Shown here: in pieces, positions 2,403-60,321 of the stretch
Layout of the letters: the number at the start of each line of letters is the position of its first letter
How positions within the stretch are numbered: position 1 is the stretch's first letter
Translations under genes and position numbers: made by a program
Assembly (NCBI GenBank): GCA_951406725.2
Contig: OX597817.1
Location: forward strand, 18,662,001-18,726,000
Direction of reading: 5' to 3'
DNA length: 64,000 nucleotides
DNA from: Octopus vulgaris
Lineage: Eukaryota
The notes under the pieces: model-generated
Told to the model about the DNA's origin: nothing
What the model saw: the letters and a program-made list of their open reading frames with translations, nothing else
The model's database searches: none

Positions 2403-2434
<32 letters not shown>

Positions 2435-2599
2435 AACATTTTTGTATACATATATATATATACTTACTTGGAAGAGGATGCGTGGCATTTCGCCATACAA
2501 TAAAAAAAATAATAAAACATATGCATATATACATACATATATGTACGTATCTACATCTATATATGTATGTATATATGCATATGTTTTTATTTATTTTGT

Positions 2600-2638
<39 letters not shown>

Positions 2639-2712
2639 CATATGTATGAATATATATATATATTTATACATAAGTATATATATATACATATATGGATACA
2701 TATATATGTATC
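2218..2712. repeat. Compound (TA)n/(TG)n microsatellite
   Basis: Direct reading; includes tataaacatttttgtatacata twice (2311, 2431). Confidence 0.95.
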
Positions 2713-2999
2713 TCTTTATCTCTTCCGAGAGAGGCAGACAGAGAGACAGAGACAGAGAGATGTCATTGCTTACCGGTATGCAATCACTTAAAATATTTCT
2801 GTAGTAGAAATTGAATGAAGTAATGGGAAACGAAAGGGCGATAGGAAAGAAACATGAATAATATGACAGAGTCATTAAATTCTTGCCTAAACTTCTTTGG
2901 CAGTGAAGTATAAATTAGACGAAAAAGCTTACACATAGGCTAAAATTATCTCACAATGGAGCGGTATTCTGAACATTATTCCATTATAGTGCATAGAAA

Positions 3000-3220
3000 G
3001 TGGTCGATTGGTAGAATCGTTAGGTTGTAGTGCAAAATGCTGAGCGGAGTATTGTTACAAATCTTTGGCCCCCGAGTTCAAAATCTCATCGCGGTCAGTT
3101 TTACCTTTCATCCCTTCGGTCACGCTAAAATAAAGTGCTCAACAAGTTGTTGGGTTAATGTGATCGACAAACCAATTTCCATTAAGAATTGCTGGGTTTG
3201 TGCTTGAATTAGAAACAATT
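3000..3220 (+). mobile_element. Diverged SINE family B (Meta-domain-like)
   Basis: gagttcaaat...ttacctttcatcccttcgg...taaaataaagtgc matches the family B core. Confidence 0.6.
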
Positions 3221-3257
3221 AAAATAGTTCTTACAATACTATGACTTACATAAGTGC

Positions 3258-3318
<61 letters not shown>

Positions 3319-3321
<3 letters not shown>

Positions 3322-3543
3322 CTTTACTACCCACAAGGGGCTAAACGTAGAGGGGACAAACAAGGACAGACAAACAGATTAAGTTGATTATATCGACCCC
3401 AGTGCGTAATTGGTACTTAATTTATCGACCCCGAAAGGATGAAAGGCAAAGTCGACCTCGGCGGAATTTGAACTCAGAACATAACAGCAGACGAAATACG
3501 GCTACGCATTTCGCCTGGCGTGCTAACGTTTCTGCCAGCTCGC
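3319..3543 (-). mobile_element. SINE family B (tRNA-like head, Meta-domain-like core)
   Basis: Reverse complement gcgagctggcagaaacgttagc...gagttcaaattccgccgaggtcgactttgcctttcatcctttcggggtcgataaattaagtacc; many near-identical copies in window. Confidence 0.9.
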
Positions 3544-3569
3544 ATATATATATATATATATACGCACCC

Positions 3570-3703
<134 letters not shown>

Positions 3704-3705
3704 CA

Positions 3706-4831
3706 CAGGGTGCGTAAGGTATTTGAGGACAGTTATATACTTACACAAAAATGACTCTTAGAATCAGACAGTATTGCCCTTTTACTGAAAAAGGTTTTGA
3801 GGATAAGAATAAACTTATTGTTTCGTCATTTTATTCAAGAAAGTCTTCAGTTTCAATAACGTCTTCTATGCGAGGTCTGAATCGCCTACATGCTAGGACC
3901 AAGTGGTCTGTGTCCATATTGGACATTACTCTGACTATGAACGCTTTTAAGAATTCTTTAGTGTTATGAGGGCGCTCATCAATCTCTTCCTCAACTACAC
4001 TCCATACATAGTAGTCCAATAGATTGAGATCTAGAGAGCTAGGAGGCCAAATGTAGGGGGTTATGTTTTCATGAAAATTTTCCGTCATCCATTGCTGCGT
4101 TGCTGTATCCTTGTGTGATGATCCCGAGTCTTGTTGAAACACATAAGGTCTTCAGTTGCATACATCATTGATCCATGGCTTAACCACTGTATTCAGAACA
4201 TCTATGTAGGCAGCAGAGTTTACTCGAAGACCTCGTGGAAAGAAGTGAGAAGGCACCACATGTCTTTCATTGCTGACAACCCCCAAAATTATGACAGTTG
4301 CAGGAAATTTTGTATGCATTACTTTTGGAACTTCTGAAGAGTCTATACATAGCCATCTGCCATTTCTTCTGTTCACTTAATGATCTTGATCAAAGTTTTT
4401 TTCGTCTAAGAAGAACCAAATGACATTTTTCTCTGCTTGGTTTTTTTAATTTGTTCAGGATCTGATTAAGCGATTTTCCTTCACTGTTTCTGACATGAAA
4501 TGACCTTTTCTCATCGCATAAGATTTGTATCTGATGTCTTTGTAGACAACATTTCAGATTGTTTCTTCTGCCACATGGTATTCCTTTGCAATCAGCCTCA
4601 CGGATCTTCTGGGATTGTCATCAATGTTCTACTTTACTTGTTGAATAAATTCTGGCGTTCTAATAGTTTCAATGCGTCTACAATGTGTCTTACGCTTTGA
4701 TACTGGTGATACATTTCCGTCTTTGCTTCTAACACCTTGCGAATTTTGTAGACGAAAGATCAGGCGACTTTTAAAAAGCGTGCTATTTCTAAATTGCTAT
4801 GTTCAGCCTTTATAGCCACGATGACTGCGTA
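3706..4831 (-). mobile_element. DD37D (maT-type) Tc1/mariner transposon relic, 5'-truncated
   Basis: ORF 3831-4142 FQQD...WPPSSLDLNLLDYY has 37 residues between the 2nd and 3rd D; ORF 4152-4376 TKFPATVIILGVVS; TIR cagggtgcgtaagg at 3706. Confidence 0.92.
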
Positions 4832-31195: not shown

Positions 31196-31475
31196 AGATC
31201 CAGCGATCGAGGTGTAGAAAGAAAGTTAGCTTCGAGCAATCCGTAGTGAATATGAAGAAAAAAAGACCTTTCAGAACCAATAGTGGCTTATTATAACGGA
31301 AGACTGCAATTTTTTTTTTCTTTTTTCGATGAATGATGAGCTGGAAAAATTATTTCTTTTTATAGTCAAGTGTGCGAAAAAGAATACAAAAGTTATGGAA
31401 TGGAGTGTGGGAAATCCGGGCTATGTATGTTTCATAGCTAGTGGAACTTCAAAAGTGGTAAACTACAAGTGAGAT

Positions 31476-31712
31476 ATACCTATTTCTTTATTACCCACAA
31501 GGGGCTAAACATAGAGGAGACAAACAAAGACAGACATAGGTATTAAGTCGATTACATCGACCCCAGTGCGTAACTGGTACTTAATTTATCGACTCCGAAA
31601 GGATGAAAGGCAAAGTCGACCTCGGCGGAATTTGAACTCAGAACGTAGCGGCAGACGAAATACCGCTAAGCATTTCGCCCAGCGTGCTACCGATTCTACC
31701 AGCTCGCCATCT
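31476..31712 (-). mobile_element. SINE family B
   Basis: Full-length reverse complement copy. Confidence 0.92.
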
Positions 31713-31936
31713 TGATTAGATTTAAGGCTACATTGTCACAAGGAGGTACATGTTGATGCAAAGATTCAATCAGAAAGTGTGGCGGGCACAGTATGTGAGG
31801 GGTATATAAATGAGGGGAGGAATAAGTAATAGAAGAAGAAAAGAAAGAAGAGTAAAAAAAGAAATAAAGAAAACAAAATAAAATATAGGGGAGTGAGAGA
31901 AAGAACGAAATGGACGGATCGGTGGTAGATAATATA

Positions 31937-32394
31937 TATTTCTTTACTACTCACAAGAGGCTAAACATAGAAGGGACTAACAAGGACAGACGAAGGGATT
32001 GAGTCGATTATATCGCCCCAATGCGAAACTGATACTTTATTTATCGACCCCGAAAGGATGAAAGGCAAAGTTGACCTCGGCGGAATTTGAACTCAGAACG
32101 TAACGACAGACAAAATACCTATTTCTTTATTACCCACAAGGGGCTAAACACAGAGGGGACAAACAAGGACAGACATAGGTATTAAGTCGATTACATCGAC
32201 TCCAGTGCGTAACTGGTACTTAATTTATCGACCCCGAAAGGATGAAAGGCAAAGTCGACCTCGGCGGAATTTGAACTCACAACGTAACGCAGACGAAATA
32301 CCGCTAAGCATTTCGCCCGGCGCGCTAACGTTTCTGCCAGCTCGCCGCCTTTCGCTAAGCATTTCACCCGGCGCGCTAACGTTTCTGCCAGCTC
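31937..32394 (-). mobile_element. SINE family B multimer (duplicated head, two tandem bodies)
   Basis: Bodies 31937-32119 and 32120-32350; cgctaagcattt..cccggcgcgctaacgtttctgccagctc repeated at 32302 and 32353. Confidence 0.9.
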
Positions 32395-47071: not shown

Positions 47072-47375
47072 TATAAAAACACCATCCGAGCGTGGCCGTC
47101 TGCCAGCCTCGTCTGGCACCTGTGTCGGTGGCACATAAAAAACACCATCCGAGCGTGGCCGTCTGCCAGCCTCGTCTGGCACCTGTGTCCGTGGCACATA
47201 AAATCACCCACTACACTCTCGGAGTGGTTGGCGTTAGGAAGGGCATCCAGCTGTAGAAATACTGCCAGATCTGACTGGACTGGTGCAGCTTTCGGGCTCC
47301 CCAGACCCCAGTTGAACCGTCCAACCCATGCTAGCATGGAAAGCGGACGTTAAATGATGATGATGATGATGATGA

Positions 47376-47448: not shown

Positions 47449-48454
47449 TATATGAATATATATGAATATGTGTATATGAGAATATATATATATAAATACA
47501 AACACGCACGCACACACAGTTGTATTGGGGACGTGTTTCCGCACATGAAGCACCATACCCCAAGTGTTACATAGTGGAACTAAATCCAAAACTAAATGGT
47601 ACTGGAGTACATTTCTTAACCCCACAACCATATTTCCGTCTACACACATGCACACAAATATATGCACACACACACACGCACACATGCACGCACACACAGA
47701 CACACGTGTACCTATGTCCGTGTGCGTGTGTGTGCGTGTGTGTGTGTGTGTGTGTGTATTTGTGTATATGTGTATAGGTGCAAACATGGCTGGTTAAGAA
47801 ATATATTTCGCATTCATGTGGTTTTGGGTTCACACCCACTGCGCAGCAACTTGGCTAGGGTGCTTCCTTTACAACTGCACGTGATCTATATAACTATGTA
47901 TGTGTGTACATGTGCACACACATACGCGCACACTCACGCACATACATCACAGAAACATGCGCACACACATGCTCTTCAGTGCGATTGTGTATGTGAATGA
48001 ACTTAGAGTTGTTTATCGATCTTGATATGGACACCCATATATATATATATGTATGGGAATGTAAGTATAAATGCGCATTGTTTGTGTGTGCAGTTAAGAT
48101 CTGTGTGAGTTATGGCGTGATAAAGCCATTGAGAAGAGAGGGTAAAAACATTAAAAATCTTCCTAAATATATTCCCGAACTAAAAGAAGAGAATAAAAGA
48201 TGATTAGAAAACAAAATAACGATAACAATTTTTATTAAAAGAGAAACAGGGAGAAAATACATTGATGGAAGGATAAAACTAATAAAGTACGGAAGAGTGT
48301 AAAATGGTAAAGAAAGACAGGCCAAGCATGTGGTGTGATGGAGCAATAGTGATATGGAGAGAAAGAACATTGGTTTAAAGAGGAATAAGTGAACGAGAAT
48401 GAACGAATATGTGAAACGAATGTATGAGCGTGTGCGTTGGTCTGCGATTGTCTG

Positions 48455-49210
48455 TGTGTGATTGTGTGTATGTGTGTGTGTGTGTCTGTATGGTGGAGAG
48501 AGAGAAAGAGAAATGAAGGATGTGTGTGTGATTGTGTGTGTGTGTGTTTGTGTGTGTGTCTGTATGGTGGAGAGAGAGAAAGAGAAATGAAGGATGTGTG
48601 TGTGATTGTGTGTGTGTGTGTTTGTGTGTGTGTCTGTATGGTGGAGAGAGAGAGAAAGAGAAATGAAGGATGTGTGTGTGATTGTGTGTGTGTGTGTTTG
48701 TGTGTGTGTCTGTATGGTGGAGAGAGAGAAAGAGAAATGAAGGATGTGTGTGTGATTGTGTGTATTGTGTGTGTGTGTGTGTGTGTCTGTATGGTGGAGA
48801 AAGAGAAAGAGAAATGAAGGATGTGTGTGTGATTGTGTGTGTGTGTGTGTTTGTGTGTGTGTCTGTATGGTGGAGAGAGAGAAAGAGAAATGAAGGATGT
48901 GTGTGTGATTGTGTGTATGTGTGCGTGTGTGTGTGTCTGTATGGTGGAGAAAGAGAAAGAGAAATGAAGGATGTGTGTGTGATTGTGTGTGTGTGTGTTT
49001 GTGTGTGTGTCTGTATGGTGGAGAAAGAGAAAGAGAAATGAAGGATGTGTGTGTGATTGTGTGTGTGTGTGTTTGTGTGTGTGTCTGTATGGTGGAGAGA
49101 GAGAAAGAGAAATGAAGGATATGTGTGTGATTGTGTGTGTGTGTGTGTTTGTGTGTGTGTCTGTATGGTGGAGAGAGAAAAAAAGAAATGAAGGATGTGC
49201 GTGTGATTGG
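48455..49210. repeat. Minisatellite, about 75-bp unit x 10
   Basis: Unit tgatt(gt)n..gtctgtatggtgg(ag)n aagagaaatgaagga(tg)n; aatgaagga counted 10 times. Confidence 0.97.
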
Positions 49211-50006
49211 TGGAATGCTGGGTAGCCAGGAAAAAGAGACAGATAGAAAGGAATTTGGTGAATCTTAAACAGAAAACAACCGAAAGAAGTGTGAACTGAC
49301 TGTAGAGTAAAGAGAATAAAATGAATGTAATTGAATAAGAATGGAATACAACCAGAATAAAGGAATAAAAAAAAGAACTCAGTAAGGTGAAGAAGAGAGT
49401 GTGAATAAAATACGAAACAGAAACAGGAACGAGAAAACAACCAGAAAGAAAGTAAAGAGGTATATAAGAAGTTGAAGCACAGACAAAATATAAAAGTATT
49501 GAAGTAAAACTAATACATTAAGCCATACATGAATCCTTATAAGCAACGGACCTATGAGTGCGCTTGTACGAGGTCGAACAGCCTGCTAGAAATAACAGCT
49601 AATTTTCTCTCATATTAGCATGTCAGACAAGGAAGAAAACTTGTCACACATTGAAGCCAGCGATACACTACACCTAAAAACAAGCATGTTAGCCACAGTA
49701 TGGACCATAGATAGAATCTCTGTTTGAACTGAGAGAAGGAACAATCAAATGTTCCTCAAATCAGACTCTGCTGTCTTTTAAAAAAGAATGCAAGAAATTG
49801 TTTTACCTGCGCGAAAAGGCAAGATAATCCAAGTTCAGTCGCAACGGATGATCATAAGTTTTCTCGGTCAAGACTGTTCTGGATTTAAACAGCAAAAATA
49901 TTAATAACAGCAATCGAAGAGATACTGGAGTCCTTCAGATACTGCATGTATAACTATAACAATTATGGCAGAACACATATATTTCTAGATAAACCTATTT
50001 TCAAGT

Positions 50007-50370
50007 CGTGACGCATATTTGCCATTTGAATATGGCTAACCCCTAAGGGTGGATGCTACTGTAGTTTGTAGCCCCAGTAAGATACCTCCTCCAGCTGGTT
50101 ATAGACACACTTTCTGTGCCCTATCAGTATTTGTGAAGGGAAGTCATCCTTCCCGTCTTCAACTTATGATACACACGGACTCGAGTTTCAAGGTATTGAC
50201 CTATCATCAGCGTGTGACAATCATAGTTGTCGACGAGAATTCAGTTTCCCTCACAAATACATATACTTTTTCCAGTAGCATCCACCCTTAGGGGTTAGCC
50301 ATATTCAAATGGCAATTATGCGTCGCGATGTGTTACCGCTACTGTTTATAACTCGCTCTGAGATTTATCA
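50007..50370 (-). mobile_element. Hammerhead-bearing non-coding retroelement (retrozyme/pLTR-like), copy 1, with 5' inversion
   Basis: 12-bp TSD ctattttcaagt (49995-50006, 50371-50382); 56-bp inverted repeat 50006-50061 / 50273-50328 with 2 mismatches; homologous to 57883-58302. Confidence 0.85.
50172..50216 (-). ncRNA. Type I hammerhead ribozyme motif
   Basis: cacacg-CUGAUGA-uaggu-caau-accuu-GAAA-cucgag-UC-cgugug: 6-bp stem I, intact core, palindromic stem III ACUCGAGU, GUC site; U-U at the base of stem II. Confidence 0.85.
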
Positions 50371-51539
50371 CTATTTTCAAGTGTTAAGAATCTACATATA
50401 AAATTAGTTCATGCCAAGTAGTGGCAAATACAGTGAGGCCGGTGATCACGAAGTTAAGGCTGCTCAGCAGCCAGCAATGCTCCAACTTCAAGAAACAAAA
50501 CAACTGTTTGTAATACTTTTTGCTGAAATTCTTACTGCTAGAATTTACGTGGTTATCGGTACGGATAGGCTGGATACACATCTTATCGGTTCGGTTGTCT
50601 TCTTTACGAAATACTTCTCGCATACTGCAAAAGAAATACAAGTTACTTCATTTGGTAACAACTAAAGTACTGTGACCAAATGACCTACGACTATACTAGT
50701 GCTTATTTGTGTGCTCACATCATCTGCCAGATAAAGTGAAACAAATGGTAAATATTACATTAGTATCACGATTCGCTACTCGCTCAGGTTAATCAAGGAA
50801 CACTCACCTATGCACATTATATCAGAAAAAAGTGGAATTGTCGAAGATGATTATTACGAGAGCTGAACTATCGGGGACGTGCATATCTTTGAATTTACCA
50901 TCTATAAATTTACAAAATTTACCAATCATCAACAACCGACAAGAATTGAACTAATCTAGACACACCCAAAGGTTCCTTACAATGCCGTGTTTGTCTATAC
51001 TTTCTCTTCATGCACAGGCTGCTTTAAGTATACTTCCTTACAGTTTCCTCGAAACAGGTTGGAGAGTAAGAAATATTATCTCTCTTGTGTATCGAGTTGT
51101 ACAACACGAGTGTCGTTCATATTACTTGGCAGCTTAACAACTGAAAGAATGCGAAGAGAGCCATCGAGAAATATGGCATGGCTTGGATGTTTTAAACTTT
51201 GAGATACCCGCAACAGTCAGGTCAGTCCTCGGTAGATTTCCCCTAGTAGAGAGCAAGAAGAAGATTCGATCCCAATGTCGTGGTACTTTTTGAATTCAAA
51301 AGGAATGAGAGATAAAGAAAACCTCAGTGGAATTTCCGTAGAGAAATCTGAGAGTCGGAACGAATACAGAACCGCATCTAATCCAATACTTAAAATTTTC
51401 TATCAATACGCAGCGTTTTGAGAATAGGGTATTTATGTTTGTATGTATGTATGTATGCATGTATGTATGTATGTATGTATGTATGTATGTATGTATGTAT
51501 GTATGTATGTATGTATGTATGTATGTATGTATCTATTAT

Positions 51540-52692
51540 GTATGTATGTGCAGATTTGTATGTATTATGTATGTATTCTCATACATATAGATGCATATTT
51601 AGACATACTTATATATATTTAAATGATAAATTCTGGAAAGTTTTACAGATTTTTACCGTTCAAGCGATGGATTTGATCTGTGGTCATCGAATTAGCTTTC
51701 TCTTTTCTGGTTTTGACAAGCCTAATTTCTCAAGATTGGTATTTAGGCATTGTGTTAATATCCCAGGGCCCCAATAATTACAGGTATAAACCTGAGCTTG
51801 TAATCTGGATAGAGTAAGTGCAGATTTCTCAATAGTTCAGCATAAGTGTTCTCTTTTTCACTGATCTTCAGCTTTATGTTAATATCCGCTGGGCAGCTAA
51901 TTTCCACAACTGTGCACACTTTCTCTTCTCTATCCTAAATCATTATATCAGGTCTGTTGTGCTTACATTTTATTGAGGTCTTCACTGGGACATTCCACCA
52001 TATTCCTTTTTAATATAAGAGTCTATGGCTTCTACCATATTGTGGGTTCATATTAACTTTGTCCACGGGATTATCCTTCCGACGGATTTCATTATAGACT
52101 GTTCTAGCTACAACATCATTTTCAGACAACTGCTTGTGATGTGGGTGATATCTTCAGTGTGAGCTCCACAAAGTCTGCATCGGTTGTTACATTTCACGTC
52201 TTTTCCTGCATCTCTATCCATTTTGTGCATCAGATACATGGTTGATATTTCCTGTTCCTGGATTGCAAACGCATACCCTTCAAAGTGGTAAGTAGTAATC
52301 TGGCTATTGGTCCACGATAGACCGCTTTGATGATCGATGTTACTATCATCACGGGGCTTTGTACTAACGTATCCATACATAGTCTTCCGCTCATATAGGC
52401 TCATCCTTTCATCTGAAGATATGTTGCAGTAGAGTCGTGTAACTTCTTTGGGCATGTATTCTAGATTATCAGGCAAAGTCTTGCTCAGGGAGCTGCCTTC
52501 CGTGTCTTATGATGCACTTCGATACTTGCTGGTTAAAAGATGTTGCTGAAGGAATATGATGCGACATTCAAGGGCATTTTGGATTGATGTGAAGCCTTTG
52601 CCGCCCTTTTCTTTTTAGGTTGGGCGGTGTACGTCACTGTTTATGTGGACATTATGTGTGCTTGCTAGTATTTTTCGGGTTTTCACATCATA
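51540..52692 (-). mobile_element. RLE-type (R4-like) LINE 3' fragment with (CATA)n tail
   Basis: EGYAFAIQEQEI, CRLC..H..SSC zinc knuckle, WWNVP..KHNRPDI..VVEISCPAD..KEN..IIGALG (PD-(D/E)xK-type endonuclease). Confidence 0.92.
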
Positions 52693-52794
52693 TGTATGTT
52701 TGTAGGTCTGTCTGTCTGTGAGTCTGTCTGTCTGTCTGTCTGTATGTATGTATGTATGTATGTATGTATGTATGTATGTATGTATGTATGTATA

Positions 52795-52967
52795 TATTTA
52801 TGTGAAGATTTGTATGTTTTATGTATGTTTTCCCATGCATATAGTTTCATATCTAGACATGCTCATATATATTTAAATAATAAACTTCTCGAAAGTTTTA
52901 CATATATTTACCGTTCCAATGATGGATTTGATCTGTAGTCTTCGAATTAGCTTTCTCCTTTCTGGTT
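52795..52967 (-). mobile_element. Second, very short 3' copy of the same RLE LINE
   Basis: Matches 51545-51712 (agatttgtatgt...gatggatttgatctgt..cgaattagctttctc.tttctggtt). Confidence 0.85.
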
Positions 52968-53078
52968 GTATGTATGTATGTACGTATGTATTTATGTATG
53001 CATGTATATGTATATATGTATGTATATGTTTGTATGTAAGTATGTATGTATGTATGTATGTATGTATGTATGTTATAT

Positions 53079-53161
53079 GTGCAGGGGTGGTAGTGTGGTA
53101 TGAAGCTTGCTTCCCAGCCACATGGTTCCGGGTTCAGTCCCACTGCGTGGAAACTTGGGTA
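53079..53161 (+). mobile_element. SINE family A head fragment
   Basis: gcaggggtggtagtgtggtatgaagcttgcttcccagccacatggttccgggttcagtcccactgcgtgg. Confidence 0.8.
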
Positions 53162-53169
53162 CACACACA

Positions 53170-53400
53170 TATATATGGAGAAGGTTGAAAAGTAAGACAT
53201 GAATTGACATGTATAAAGAAAATAGGTCAAGGTAGAAAATGCTTAAAATAACTTTATCATAAAGAACATCTTAGTACCGGCTTCAGTCTTTGCGACTTTT
53301 TCAACTTGGAGTAAAGCATGAAAAACGATTAAATTGTGGAAAATTTAAATGTAATTTTTTAAAGAAATATTTCCATAATTTTGAAATAGGTGGGGTATTT
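53170..53400 (-). mobile_element. pLTR-like repeat with decayed U3-A8 hammerhead
   Basis: 53273-53306 reverse complement ag-TTGAAAA-agtc-gcaaa-gact-GAAG-ccgg-TA-ct. Confidence 0.45.
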
Positions 53401-53790
53401 TCATTTTTGCTGTCTCTCTGTCTTTTACTTTTGTGAAGGCTCGGTATGTAGGTAGTAGCAGATCTGCAGATCTTCGGATATATAATGTAGGTTTTCAACA
53501 TACTCCATTATAATTCTTAGAAAATATTTCATCAGAACTAGAGAATGAAAGTATTACATGCTGCTAATATTGTAGCAGAATGAACTTTGAGAGAAAATAC
53601 TCCAACTATAATTTGAAGTGAATAACAATGTGGTCACGAAATGGTAGCATAGCAACGGTTTTATATATATATTTGCTTTTATTCACCTTACTTCTAGCTG
53701 TGCAGATAATACTGGACTGATTTGGTGCCTCAACTTAAGTACCTAATTCAACTGAATCCTAATTATTTCTTTTATCTCTCTCTTTTTATC

Positions 53791-53886
<96 letters not shown>

Positions 53887-53905
53887 GTATGTATGTATGT
53901 ATGTA
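53791..53905. repeat. (ATCT)n then (ATGT)n microsatellite
   Basis: Direct reading. Confidence 0.97.
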
Positions 53906-53999
53906 CGTACGTACATATATGTACGTATATATACATATCTATCAATGTAATAAAACGCACTTAAACTACACTGCGAAGACAAAGTTTCTGGAAAAAGAA

Positions 54000-56210
54000 A
54001 GACCTCCGCAAGTCTGCAATTCTATGCAAAGGATGCCTGCTGGCTTGGAAACATTGGGACAGGCTATGGATTCGCTCATCTCAAATCCGATGTGAGCATT
54101 ACTCGTTTCAAGGCCAGGAGCAAGAACACGACCATATCACAAACTACAATTTCTCCACTATGGAAAGATGTGGACCGTGCACACTGCTCATAAGAGGAAA
54201 GAAAGTGTGGATGTAGTGCCGACAGCCACTGTTGAACAACGGTTCATTTTGAAATGGCACAGAGGGTAGTTAGGTAGCTGACCTGGCTTCATCAGACATT
54301 GAATTTGAGGTTCATGTACTAGCACTCAAGACCACCTCAAACAACAAAAGATCCAAGGTGATCTCAGCATATGTCAGATCAATGGCCACTACCAACATGT
54401 TATATATCATACCAGTGTTCCTGTTGAACATAAAGGGCCTTGTAAGACCCACAAACGCAAAACCCGATACCTGAGACACACAAATAACGTGGCGCTGACC
54501 CATAATGTTAAAATGACACCAACGATTCTGTTGGGTCATAACTTGATAGGACTAACAATGTAAGGTCTGCAGAAAACTGCATACATGCAGGCTACTAGAA
54601 GCACCCAATTCCTCACCAGCCAGAACTTTCACAAAGCTGACTTGAAGGGTAGTGAGAAAGAGGTCATGGAACAAAACTGGTCTACCAGTCTCTCTGCCTA
54701 ATATATTGACATAAAGCTACTGCACTTTATGATAATCATGCATGACATATGCAATAAGTTTGCTCCAGAGAGAATACCAAACCAACAAAAAATATAATTC
54801 CAAATGATAGGAGGATTCTAATGAGATGACGAGTAAAAACATCAATCCATCTAAATGGGCCACAAAAGAATAGCAAGGGATCCTATTTCAAACAAACAAT
54901 GCTCGAGATCGAAAGTGAATTCAAATACTCACGTGAAAAGGAGAGCGCAAAGAAAAAAAGACAGGGTTGTCATATTATAAGACGAATTATAAAGCCTTTA
55001 ATAAAGTTGCAAAAGAGTCTGCTTCAGTATAGTACAAGATAGGGCCACTGCTCGAAGAAAATCGTTCACCGACTGCAGACCCCACGGAGGATAAGTGAAA
55101 TACTGAATGTGCAATACAAGAGTGCTTTTAAAACTCCATTGGGATATTTGCAAGTAGCTATGCCTGATGATTTCTACACGAAGAGATCACAATTATTGGT
55201 AACGAAATGGAGGAAACTGATGTAATATCAGCCATTGATGAGATGAGCTCAAACTCAGCCAAAGGCGCTCATGGATTCCCGGCAATCCCTCTGAAGAAAT
55301 GAAAAGGGACTCTAGCAAGACCACTCCATATTCTCTTTCAGAGCTATCTTGCAACTGGAAGACTTCCCAACAAGTTATAGAAAGGCATAATATGTCCTAT
55401 TCATAATGCAGTTAGCAGAGAACATGCTAAAATTATAAACCTGTCTCTCTAGTGTTCCATGTCAGCAAAGCCATGGAGCGCATTGTCAGGAGAAAACTGA
55501 TCGCATTCCATGAACATAATGAATTACTCCCAAACCCAGCATATTTTCCTATCAGGAAGAAGCTACATTGCACAGCTTTAGCAGCATTATGACTAATGTT
55601 AAACAATTACTGAAGCTCTCAAACGTGGACGTAATATAAACTGGTTCTATGGAGGACTGTTGTACTCAGCCGTCTGAACTACTGTTCTCAACTGTGGTCA
55701 TCCTGCAGTGTCATATTATATAATAGCGGAACTTGAGGCAGCCCAGCGGTGTTCCTCCAGGAAGATTGCATCAATGAAATAGCTGAGCTATTGGGAGGGA
55801 CTGAAATAGATACGATTCTATCCATTGAAGCGAAGACGGGAAAGGTATACAGTGATATACGTATGGGAGATTCTGGGGGGCCTGGCATCAAACTTTGATA
55901 TTGAGAGCCATACTAGCCCTCGAACTGGACATCAATGCACTGTTCCAGAGGTCCCAGCTATCCTGTCTAGAATGAGGAGCATGTACTGAAATAGCTTGCG
56001 GTTCAATGGTGCACTGATATTTAACGCCTTGCCTATACATCTGAGGTATCTTTATGGAGTATAGGCAGATGCTTTCAAGAAGCAACTTGAGCTCCTACTA
56101 ATCAAGATCCCAGATGAACCTATGTAAAAGTAGGAAACTCAAAAGAAGGCTGCAACGTCGAATTCCCTCCTTCAACAAAAGCCAGTCACATAAGACTGAC
56201 CACTGAAAAG
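54000..56210 (+). mobile_element. CR1-clade LINE relic with internal deletion of the RT core
   Basis: SNSAKGAHGFPAIPLKK, GIICPIH..KNYKPVSL..SKAMERIV, SNVDVI, joined at about 55640 to LSRLNYCSQLW..ELEAAQR..LSYWEGLK..RRRERY..WEILGGL; left boundary uncertain. Confidence 0.85.
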
Positions 56211-56370
56211 ATGATTACACTGGTGGTGTTCCAAGCATGACCACCACCTAAGGGATGAAACGTATAAAAGAAAGAATTAAAAAACTAATATATATATCGT
56301 TTGTAGAAAACAAAAATCCAGACAATAAGAATAAGCACGCTCTAAGATGCAGAGCAGTTTATATTTTAAT

Positions 56371-56558
56371 GGGAAAGGTCGGTTTACTCTGGGTTTCCGG
56401 TCTATAAAGGGTTTAGTTTATAGAGTATAGTCAGATCTCAAAATCTGTTGAAGTTAGACCTCTTAGGCCAACATGTTTTGGGATCTAATGATGCACCATA
56501 AGGCGAAAACCTTTACAGACGGGAAACCCAGGGTGACCCCATAAACCGGCCTCCCCCC

Positions 56559-56560
<2 letters not shown>
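56371..56560. mobile_element. MITE with about 50-bp imperfect TIRs
   Basis: gggaaaggtcggttta-ctctgggtttccggtctataaagg versus reverse complement of cctttacagacgggaaacccagggtgaccccataaaccggcctccccc. Confidence 0.7.
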
Positions 56561-56599
<39 letters not shown>

Positions 56600-56602
<3 letters not shown>

Positions 56603-56785
56603 TTATTCATTCACTTGTTTCAGTCATTTGACAGTGGCCATGCTGGAGCACCTCATAGAGTCGAACAAATCGACCCCAAGACTTAATATTTCTAAGCATA
56701 GCACTTATTCTATCGCGGTCTTTTGCTGAAGCGCTAAGTTACGTGGGCGTAAATACACTAACAGCGAGAGTGGGTGGACCAAACA
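56600..56785 (-). mobile_element. SINE family A 3' half
   Basis: cttgtttcagtcatttgacagtggccatgctggagcacc...aaatcgacccc. Confidence 0.85.
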
Positions 56786-56841
56786 TATAGATATATATGT
56801 GTATGTATATATATATATATATATACATGTATATATATATG

Positions 56842-56917
<76 letters not shown>

Positions 56918-57558
56918 ATGGGTTGAAAGGAAGCAATACTAATGCTGAAGGTGAGCGGAGGAAGCCTCGGCCAACCAAACCTCTAATAGGCAAGCCATCA
57001 ATAACCAAATAACCAAATAGTTGTTATCTCTGCTATTTCGTTATAAAAGGAAATCGGAGCTTGCTGGTTGGTGTTACTTCCAGAATAGACAGCTACGATA
57101 TTTCGATTAAACGATAAGATCCGCATTGTGTATTAAATGCTACAAAACGACAATTTCTGGTTAATTACATATTGTATTGTGTTGTATAGTTGAAAACTCA
57201 GAGGAATGAAAACTGCCAACAGAATTATTATTAACATCCTATTCGTTTGGCATTGTTTCAGCGGGAAACAGCATATGTCGTTAGTGAAAAGAACGTCTGG
57301 GTGATGAAATATGTTAAGTGTAGGAAAGCGTATTGAATTGTATTGAGGATCAATGACGAAACATAAGTGGCAATACACACACTGCACACAGATAGAGGGC
57401 GAAAACAGAGACACGCGTATATGTACATAAACGTAGTAACATACGAAACACAACCGCTTTTATTCTTCTCTCTCTCAAAATCAATTACAAAGTTGTACAT
57501 ATACATACATACGTATATCTATATCTATATATAAATGTATGTGTAATTACATATATAC

Positions 57559-57622
<64 letters not shown>

Positions 57623-57843
57623 GTATATATATCAATAATAAATAGTGGCACAACAAGGTACCAATTTTCGCTGGAAATAACAGTTGACAACCGTTCGATG
57701 CTAGATAACGATTCACTGAATGTGTAGAAACAAATATGTGTGCGGGTAGCGAAAAGATGGTACTTTGCTGTGTCACTATTTCCTATTTATAATTCTACCT
57801 TCACGGTGCTTTATTTAGCTCGAAAATGATATTGTAATAATAT

Positions 57844-57882
<39 letters not shown>

Positions 57883-57892
<10 letters not shown>

Positions 57893-58302
57893 TCTGTTAT
57901 ATCAAACCTCTGAGCGAAATATAGCTAGTAGCAGTAAGGAACCATAATATATTTGCCAACCAGGTTTGGCATCCTATGCAGGACAGTGCTACTGATGTTT
58001 ATAGCGTGAGGAAGACATCTCCTCCAGCTGGTTAACGACACACATTCTGTGTCCGATTAGTATTTGTGAGGGGAGGTCATGGCACTCATCTCTAGCCTCA
58101 CGCGACACACACAGACTCGAGTTTCTAGATGGTTACCCGTCCTCAGCGTGTGTTAATCACCAACTAGTGATGGAAGCTCATTCCACTCACAAATTACTCT
58201 ATATTTTTGAAACTATTCGCTGATCTCGTAGAAGAGAGAGAGAATGTTATATTAAATCTTTGAATGAGATATAAAGAGTAGCAGTACGGAACCGTAACAT
58301 GT
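57883..58302 (-). mobile_element. Hammerhead-bearing non-coding retroelement, copy 2 (about 1.2 units of a 350-bp monomer)
   Basis: Homologous to copy 1 (tgctactg..ctcctccagctggtta..gacacac..ttctgtg..agtatttgtga); about 68-bp imperfect direct repeat at 57883 and 58233. Confidence 0.8.
58107..58153 (-). ncRNA. Type I hammerhead ribozyme motif, slightly decayed
   Basis: acacacg-CUGAGGA-cgggu-aacc-aucua-GAAA-cucgag-UC-ugugugu; weak stem II. Confidence 0.75.
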
Positions 58303-58869
58303 CAAACATCCAGTCAACATCATAGTGTTTGGAGGGATCATCAGTGACGCTTCCATTCATCTTCCCACACGACCTCAGACTCAACACGAAGGCCTTACAT
58401 CAAGTGTTTGAAGGACGTAGTGCTGCTCTGGGTCAAGGGGGTGACTGCTGGAAGATTCTATGTTTACCAACAGGACTCTGCACCATGTCACACAAGCAGG
58501 AGAACCCAGTCATGACAGTCAGACAATTTCTGTGACCACATCATCACCCCTAACATCTGACCACCTAACTCCTCAGACTGCAAACCCCTTGATTATTATC
58601 TGTTGGGCGCAGTTATGTAAGAGATCATCAAAACTCCTAGTAACACCAAAGATGATCTGAAGGCACGGATTATGGCAACATTCACCAACTTAAACCAGGA
58701 GACCGTTCAGAAGAGTTGCAGCATGTTCCGAAGTTGCCTGGAGGTTGTCTTTGAAGCCAATGGCGATTTTATTGAATAAATTTACTCTTTAGTTTTTCAA
58801 GATATTTTAAATGTAATTTTGGTAAATATATCTGTTAAAATGAGATGTCAGTGTTACCGAACCCTGTAT
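58303..58869 (+). mobile_element. DD37D (maT-type) transposon 3' relic
   Basis: HPVNIIVFG, YQQDSAPCHTSRRTQS, PNI*PPNSSDC.PLDYY, ANGDFIE*; ends ccctg-TA. Confidence 0.9.
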
Positions 58870-60321
58870 TTACATATATATATATGCGTGTGTGTGTTTG
58901 TGTTTTTGTGTGCATATGTATGTGTATACATACACCGAATAATATGAACACTGCAAGTAAGTACGAGAAATAGATAGATAAATAGAGAATGCGTGTTTGT
59001 GTGTGACACTGTACTAAACACACTGTACTGATTAATTCCATTCTGTACTGATTTGAAAGACTATCAAATCTCTCTTTAGTGTTTATTTCTACGTTGTGTT
59101 GAAAATTATAGTTCTTACACAATAATTTTGCTGTTGATCCAATGCAATTTTTCTGTTTTCGCTTTATTTCTACGAAAGTGTCTTGAACCATGCATACACA
59201 CACGCACACACACACACACACACACACATATACGCACACATCTATAGATGCATATTACTGTATGTGTGTGTGTATGTAAACCGATGTAAATGTCATACAA
59301 ATTTGTCAAATGAACACCCTAATCGATTTTCGATGGTCATTGGGGTCTCATCAGAAGTGACTACATCGCCTGAACAATCCTAGAGGAACCTTATCCAATC
59401 CGTTTATATACACATCGAATCCAGTAGCTTCAGAGAAATGGAACAACTAATTTGCATACTACAGGCGTATCAAATATCCCCTGGGTTTTGTTCCCTACTT
59501 ACATTATATTCACGAACGCCGTACTTACTATCACTTCAACCAACACCTACTCGTACACAAATGATAACACCCATAATCTCAAGCCCTTTGCTCATAGATA
59601 TCATCTACACGAAACCGAAATACTTCATTCCAAACTTGCACTAAACCCATGATTCAATCACAGCACATACCACGAAAACATATTTGCAACTTAACTTTTT
59701 AAACATCAAAAGCACTTAACTAGAAGCCTCTCAATTACGTTAATTCATATTACAAACATCATTGAGATTCTAGCAAAAACACTTATACAACAGACCAAAA
59801 CATAATCCGTATTCAAACATTTTGCTCCAAAACCAGAAAATATTCCGCAAGGAATACAACACCCGTCCTGGGGAAAGTGTAACTGTTACGCACTCAACAT
59901 TATAGACCATCTCAACAGACTAAGTATTCAATTCACTGGCATGACGCTGCTCACAAACACACGCCAACGACTGGGCCATAAGCGGGTTGCGTCATTCTAC
60001 TTATTTTTCTACTGCTGCTGCCATATTTTCTGCATGTCGAGGCAGTCTTCATTCGTGTCTATATGTCTTTCCCCTTTTCGTCCTTCTTGACACTCTATTT
60101 TGCACCTTACTGTGGCTCTTCCTTCATAAGGTATCAAATTCCTTCCTACCTTACAGAGATTTTCCTTTGCAGAGGCGTCTACTGGTCTTGGAGTACGTAT
60201 AAATGGTATGGGCATAACATCTTTCCTTCATAATCTATAATCATACATGCACGTTTACAGGTACACACATATGTATGTATGTATATATGCGCGCGTGTGT
60301 TTGTATATATATTTATATATA

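Follow-up and report, generated by a model that had tools for sequence, protein, structure and literature searches.

In this study, a 64,000-nt window of Octopus vulgaris DNA ("the window" denotes this whole stretch) was found to contain, at positions 57883-58300, 1.19 units of a multi-copy, non-coding monomer of about 352 bp, decayed and carrying a single type I hammerhead motif in each unit. This insertion, hereafter copy 2, is probably a decayed copy of a non-LTR retrozyme that was mobilised in trans by a Penelope-type enzyme. A first-pass annotation of the same DNA had reported a diverged homologue about 8 kb away; this homologue, copy 1, was found at a distance of 7.9 kb and is 72% identical to copy 2 (187/260 aligned columns). 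The monomer has a GC content of 0.43-0.44, and its body contains no ATG ORF of at least 30 amino acids. It lies within the size, composition and coding limits used for retrozymes (150-450 bp, GC below 50%, no protein). The earlier placement of its length, about 350 bp, in the range of animal retrozymes was correct, and GC content and hammerhead type fit this group as well.

Copy 2 is read on the minus strand. Its 3' end in RNA sense is segment A (57883..57950, delimited by repeat comparison); the monomer body (57951..58232) comprises segments B and C, the hammerhead and segment D, and is adjoined by segment A' (58233..58300), a second, partial unit that is joined to D as in other copies of the family. 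The two A segments are identical at 54 of 68 positions in an ungapped comparison at an offset of exactly 350 (E 1.3e-11), which bears out the report that about 68 bp at the left end of copy 2 recur imperfectly 350 bp further on; the words tgttatat (57895/58245) and agtagcagta (57927/58277) were both re-found where they had been placed. The span originally given, 57883..58302, holds this repeat and is slightly too long, with 58301-58302 already lying in, or overlapping, a transposon remnant. Segment A opens with an (AG)5 run that may belong to the element, the target or both, and the 10 of the 54 matches that lie in this run would suit a chance resemblance, or a unique flank duplicated on insertion. 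Both are extremely improbable: without the run, 44 of 58 positions still agree, whereas the best chance match of the same 58-mer to the rest of the window, both strands included, is 31 of 58, and part of the repeat is also present in the tail of copy 1.

Further evidence against a duplicated flank comes from other copies of the family. Of the 13 public runs listed, four DNA runs were used, which come from three studies and bear three organism labels; their contigs were placed on 57881-58460 with a likeness threshold of 80%. Each run contributed 2432 to 3620 contigs, many of them on the flanking transposon and most less than 95% alike. Dozens cover A', and some run on into B in each of the four runs; duplication of a unique flank, which the first-pass annotation had named as the outcome that would speak against its own reading, was therefore ruled out. 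Six of the 15 joints listed (the best 15 of 49) are such head-to-tail joints from A' to B. One of them, 58298>57947, corresponds to a period of 352 and is present in all four runs, from all three studies; the period is 350 in copy 2 and 347-353 in most of the joints listed with letters. A single contig reads hammerhead-D-A-B-C without interruption, and the passage from D to A' is bridged in 2 of the 32 pieces listed (31-letter rule). Because contigs read from A' on into B and from D into A', segment A is part of the monomer, and copies start and end at different places on it. The monomers thus form a multi-copy family with head-to-tail joins (A' to B in 4/4 runs, and the D to A' pieces), as is required of retrozymes. 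The family contigs, which are short and collapsed, show no array of two full units, and there is none at either copy in the window. The majority letters of the family used below represent a mix of subfamilies, taken from 40 of 113 rows, and the loose-end rows listed come almost wholly from the transposon flank. Within the monomer, summed contig depth (which is not copy number) is highest at 58021-58040, a short segment with the palindrome CCAGCTGG, in which 16 bases are identical in copies 1 and 2. This segment may be a conserved signal common to several subfamilies.

Both copies carry a type I hammerhead motif with the core words CUGAnGA, GAAA and GUC and three helices. A descriptor scan placed the motif of copy 2 at 58102..58160 (minus strand), with the core CUGAGGA at 58146-58140, GAAA at 58125-58122, a helix III of 2 bp with the palindrome ACUCGAGU at 58122-58115, and a predicted GUC cut between 58114 and 58113. 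Helix II has 4 bp with a C-A mismatch at its base; helix I has 6-7 bp and is followed by an internal loop and a 5-bp upper helix. In copy 1, the core CUGAUGA lies at 50210-50204, and a different 4-bp helix II has U-U at its base. The earlier description of a shared core and identical stem III (ACUCGAGU) beside a divergent stem II thus holds in the descriptor scan. Two of the differences in helix II are attributable to decay of copy 2: with the majority letters, the G-U pairs at 58127 and 58129 become G-C. At four places with G-U pairs in copy 2 (58103, 58106, 58127 and 58129), the majority letter of the other copies, read by eye, gives a Watson-Crick pair. The three type I candidates that the descriptor gave in the window lie on the minus strand (cores at 58146, 50210 and 59354), whereas 40 shuffled windows gave one match in all and none at the strictness of copies 1 and 2. 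All 17 drawn pairs are kept in both copies, one of them changed on both sides and five on one, and covariation over these two sequences did not exceed its shuffle control (258/500). An Rfam search of the whole 64 kb returned no match at the gathering score, and no hammerhead was among the 48 weak matches up to E 10 in 49500-58800. Motif scans of metagenome contigs, viral contigs and prokaryote genomes gave no match.

Folding predictions favour other structures for the isolated motifs. The hammerhead fold of copy 2 was calculated at -4.2 kcal/mol (upper helix left out) against -16.3 kcal/mol for the lowest-energy fold, and that of copy 1 at -5.6 against -11.9 kcal/mol; self-pairing of the palindrome ACUCGAGU was calculated at -10.7 kcal/mol. 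In these models, the self-pairing palindrome and the poor monomeric fold fit the dimer model described for hammerheads with a short helix III (PMC4209133). The G10.1-C11.1 pair, termed highly conserved in the same source, is replaced here by an unpaired C-A (copy 2) or U-U (copy 1). Folded as a circle, the monomer exceeds its shuffles in stability by a small margin that is the same for the two strands (z -1.8 to -2.0). The third candidate of the descriptor scan is a decayed type I hammerhead-like motif at 59312-59362 (minus strand; core CUGAUGA at 59354), unrelated in sequence to copies 1 and 2, with a palindromic helix III (AAUCGAUU) and a broken helix II. Beside it, at 59390-59960, are broken frames that look Penelope-like by their motifs; Pfam gave no confirmation for these frames, and a homologue search among longer proteins returned none from 751 candidates.

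The anatomy of copy 1 is the best clue to the mechanism of insertion. Copy 1 consists of a long arm of 266 bp (50007..50272, minus strand; B, C, hammerhead and D) and an inverted arm of 98 bp (50273..50370, plus strand). Of the latter, 55 bp match the end of the long arm (53/55), and the outer 43 bp form a tail that extends beyond this end and corresponds to part of segment A. The insertion is flanked by an exact 12-bp target-site duplication (49995..50006 and 50371..50382, plus strand), which has two matches in the window against 0.01 expected; none of 100 shuffles reached two. Copy 1 thus combines an inverted truncated arm, a tail and a target duplication, the footprint of Penelope mobilisation. 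As described in the available text of PMC3846280 and PMC8557442, Penelope-like elements have one arm that is inverted and truncated, sometimes a tail of 30-40 bp, and a target duplication of 8-10 bp, compared with a tail of 43 bp and a duplication of 12 bp here. In vitro, the tail has been traced to the distance between two internal start sites (PMC11167929).

The repeated segment of copy 2 had been described as homologous to the inverted segment of copy 1. This applies to the outer 43 bp of the 98-bp arm, and the match is weak by itself: tail and A agree at 27 of 34 positions (E 0.02-0.03), and the ungapped value of 31/58 equals the best chance match. What lends it credibility is its collinearity with the 55-bp arm next to it. 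The claim that both insertions are partial multimers fails for copy 1, which spans about 309 of about 352 positions in two inverted arms; therefore, no template longer than one unit is needed for it. In the public runs, 5 of the 15 joints listed (the best 15 of 49) join opposite strands at varied places, as expected from further two-armed copies. In addition, the joint 58080>58250, found in one contig in each of two of the four runs and counted as a single event, restarts where the tail of copy 1 ends. Both the tail end of copy 1 and this restart lie at 58250/57900, and the left end of copy 2 is 5-17 nt away.

The same features raise the question of whether the monomer is simply the pseudo-LTR of an autonomous Penelope-like element, in which case both copies would be 5'-truncated partial tandems and there would be no free-standing retrozyme. 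A tail, an inverted arm and a target duplication are typical of such elements (PMC8557442, PMC3846280), type I hammerheads whose helix III is small and palindromic occur in their terminal repeats (PMC4209133), and retrozymes homologous to such repeats are reported in Xenopus (10.64898/2026.07.22.740005). However, the sequence upstream of D, here and in other contigs, is segment A instead of coding sequence, and neither copy contains an ORF; some of the 1059 loose-end rows beyond those listed may still lead into coding sequence. The helices of 6-7, 4 and 2 bp and the additional upper helix also fit the canonical rather than the minimal motif, as these are described in PMC4209133. This origin is therefore considered quite unlikely. 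No autonomous partner element was found.

The ends of copy 2 differ in character. On the left, it abuts a (TA)n microsatellite (57840..57882; 57840-57883 with period 2 in TRF), which is likely to have been its target site. On the right, it is followed by a high-copy DNA-transposon remnant (58302..58868, plus strand) that lacks its left part. Contig depth over this repeat is very high, and the loose ends show that other copies continue to the left of 58302 with different letters. The upstream motif of the transposon is absent from the window, and no partner was found there for a candidate right terminal repeat (about 58846-58868). Its frame matched Sleeping Beauty transposase weakly (E 0.19) and gave no Pfam match; the label Tc1/mariner-like, assigned partly on motifs, is presumptive. 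The original right end of copy 2 probably disappeared when a deletion fused the copy to the middle of this transposon. The description of copy 2 as terminally redundant is thus right as to the end repeat and overstated as to the terminus, the right end being probably a later break at a transposon interior. Because the original right end was probably deleted, 68 bp is a lower bound for the overlap, and no target duplication is left at copy 2; an inverted arm and a tail are likewise absent.

The surroundings of both copies are about 35% GC, rich in microsatellites, and without long ORFs outside repeats throughout the window. A second, diverged remnant of the right-flank transposon lies at 3852-4208 (minus strand; about 42% identity in translation, E 7e-20). 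To the left of copy 2, 57640-57782 is a 143-bp segment whose long inverted ends match imperfectly (29/34 and 36/44); folded as RNA it gives a hairpin of -48.5 kcal/mol, and it is possibly a small DNA-transposon derivative. Other repeats in the window include a head-to-tail cluster of a dispersed repeat of about 230 bp (31474-32346), a minisatellite of about 75 bp (48375-49285), and a 63-bp tandem pair of 98% identity (47075-47200).

Copy 2 is an old insertion. Its divergence from the 32 listed pieces amounts to 16.1% (12.6-19.6%), and no fewer than 21 of its 282 body sites depart from the majority letter, mostly by changes from GC to AT. Against this 16% background, the 14 differences between A and A' are not exceptional (P 0.07 for 14/58; P 0.20 for 14/68), although their divergence of 14/58 is significantly higher than that of the arms of copy 1 (2/55; Fisher P 0.002). 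Because copy 2 is old, these differences still allow one pass over one RNA, and one old insertion followed by decay is their simplest reading. Alternatively, copy 2 may be the remnant of a longer head-to-tail array, formed by satellite-like duplication at the DNA level, or of two insertions, trimmed by deletion; the overlap would then be uninformative on a single pass of reverse transcription. The value of 14/58 is indeed somewhat above the 16% that separates copies, copy 2 is broken off on its right side at the interior of a transposon, and local tandem amplification from a terminal repeat has been proposed (10.64898/2026.07.22.740005). On the other hand, the register in which D passes into A' is that of other copies, and the left end lies at a (TA)n tract near the position where the tail of copy 1 ends. 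Moreover, at six of the seven A/A' sites for which a majority letter is listed, the segment opposite the change carries that letter, which indicates a private change from one common letter. An array or a double event is thus regarded as unlikely. The overlap of A and A' can no longer separate a circle from a tandem transcript, or one event from two. RNA editing was rejected as the source of the changes in copy 2, with a tally of three on the sense strand against four on the other and with GC>AT changes leading by 15 to 9 (28 sites). The three sense-strand A>G changes relative to the majority cluster at 58099-58106, in the 3' arm of upper helix I, and there is no strand excess across the copy.

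The preferred reading, a retrozyme copied by a Penelope-type enzyme acting in trans, may be outlined as follows. A multi-unit locus elsewhere would be transcribed from the strand that is minus here, and the hammerhead, probably dimerised by way of its palindromic helix III, would cut the transcript at one site in every unit. The released units may then be ligated into circles. A borrowed Penelope-type reverse transcriptase/endonuclease would nick AT-rich DNA, here the (TA)n tract; copying would start inside the RNA in segment A, pass an intact cut site and overrun its own start by at least 68 nt. In copy 1, two cDNAs begun about 43 nt apart from two cut strands would have been joined head to head. 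Copy 2 would later have decayed, likely neutrally, and lost its right end by deletion into the middle of the DNA transposon. It is likely dead: a single hammerhead would not suffice for it to free a unit on its own.

As for the template, it had been suggested that a circular or tandem RNA of about 350 nt was used. Copy 2 did need a circle or a template of more than one unit, and between a circle and an uncut tandem transcript the balance is close to even, leaning slightly to the circle. A circle as template is a published proposal (PMC7229834; PMC4209133). In vitro, the main substrate of a Penelope-like enzyme was uncut RNA (PMC11167929), which weakens the need for a circle. A more specific possibility, which we put forward tentatively, is that the enzyme runs round a ligated 352-nt circle from two fixed starts separated by 43 nt and, having dropped off, can resume at the same point; the lineage would be an old one in which an open helix II base (C-A or U-U) is tolerated. 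Copy 2 would then be the fossil of an overrun, and such genomic footprints would supply the missing proof of circle-templated retrotransposition in animals. So far, the route by which animal retrozymes return to DNA, through a circle and a Penelope enzyme, has been proposed and not shown. To this, copies 1 and 2 add an insertion with a full Penelope footprint and a copy longer than one unit, both of them old.

Several known systems can be compared with this family. Plant-type LTR retrozymes carry a type III hammerhead in two LTRs and have a 4-bp duplication, according to the accessible parts of PMC7229834 and 10.64898/2026.07.22.740005; the family is ruled out as one of these by its type I hammerhead, its single motif and the 12-bp duplication of copy 1. 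Penelope-like elements and their pseudo-LTRs resemble it, as far as their published descriptions were available, in the head-to-head inverted arm, the one-arm tail and the target duplication of copy 1, and also in partial tandems, AT-rich or (TA)n targets and a type I hammerhead. Unlike in autonomous Penelope-like elements, neither an RT nor a GIY-YIG frame is present in these copies.

Li, Clavereau and Pollet (2026; bioRxiv 10.64898/2026.07.22.740005) view retrozymes as non-autonomous Penelope derivatives, on the grounds of co-occurrence and of homology to pLTRs in Xenopus, and also describe solo monomers of retrozyme families. Our overall reading is the same. In the available text of that preprint, no mollusc is among the groups named and the anatomy of insertion sites, given here, is not treated; by the rule stated in it, two consecutive hammerhead units, copy 2 is no active retrozyme. 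A description of a retrozyme from a cephalopod host may be missing from the literature searched.

The closest likeness is to the metazoan non-LTR retrozymes, of which Cervera and de la Pena (2020; PMC7229834) describe, in the portion available, mussel units of 350-390 bp and the axolotl Rtz_353 with HHR_Amex2, a motif whose helix III has 2 bp and whose helix II has U-U at its base. According to that portion, the common features are a non-coding unit of about 350 bp with GC below 45%, one type I hammerhead per unit, a 2-bp helix III with a tetraloop, and a target duplication of more than 4 bp (here in copy 1). Copy 1 also shares U-U at the helix II base with HHR_Amex2, whereas copy 2 has C-A. 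The likeness to the mussel and axolotl retrozymes is drawn from their published descriptions, and the present family showed no arrays made of two or more full units. Retrozymes of such size are thus already known from mussel and axolotl, and the present family is probably a further, old member of this group.
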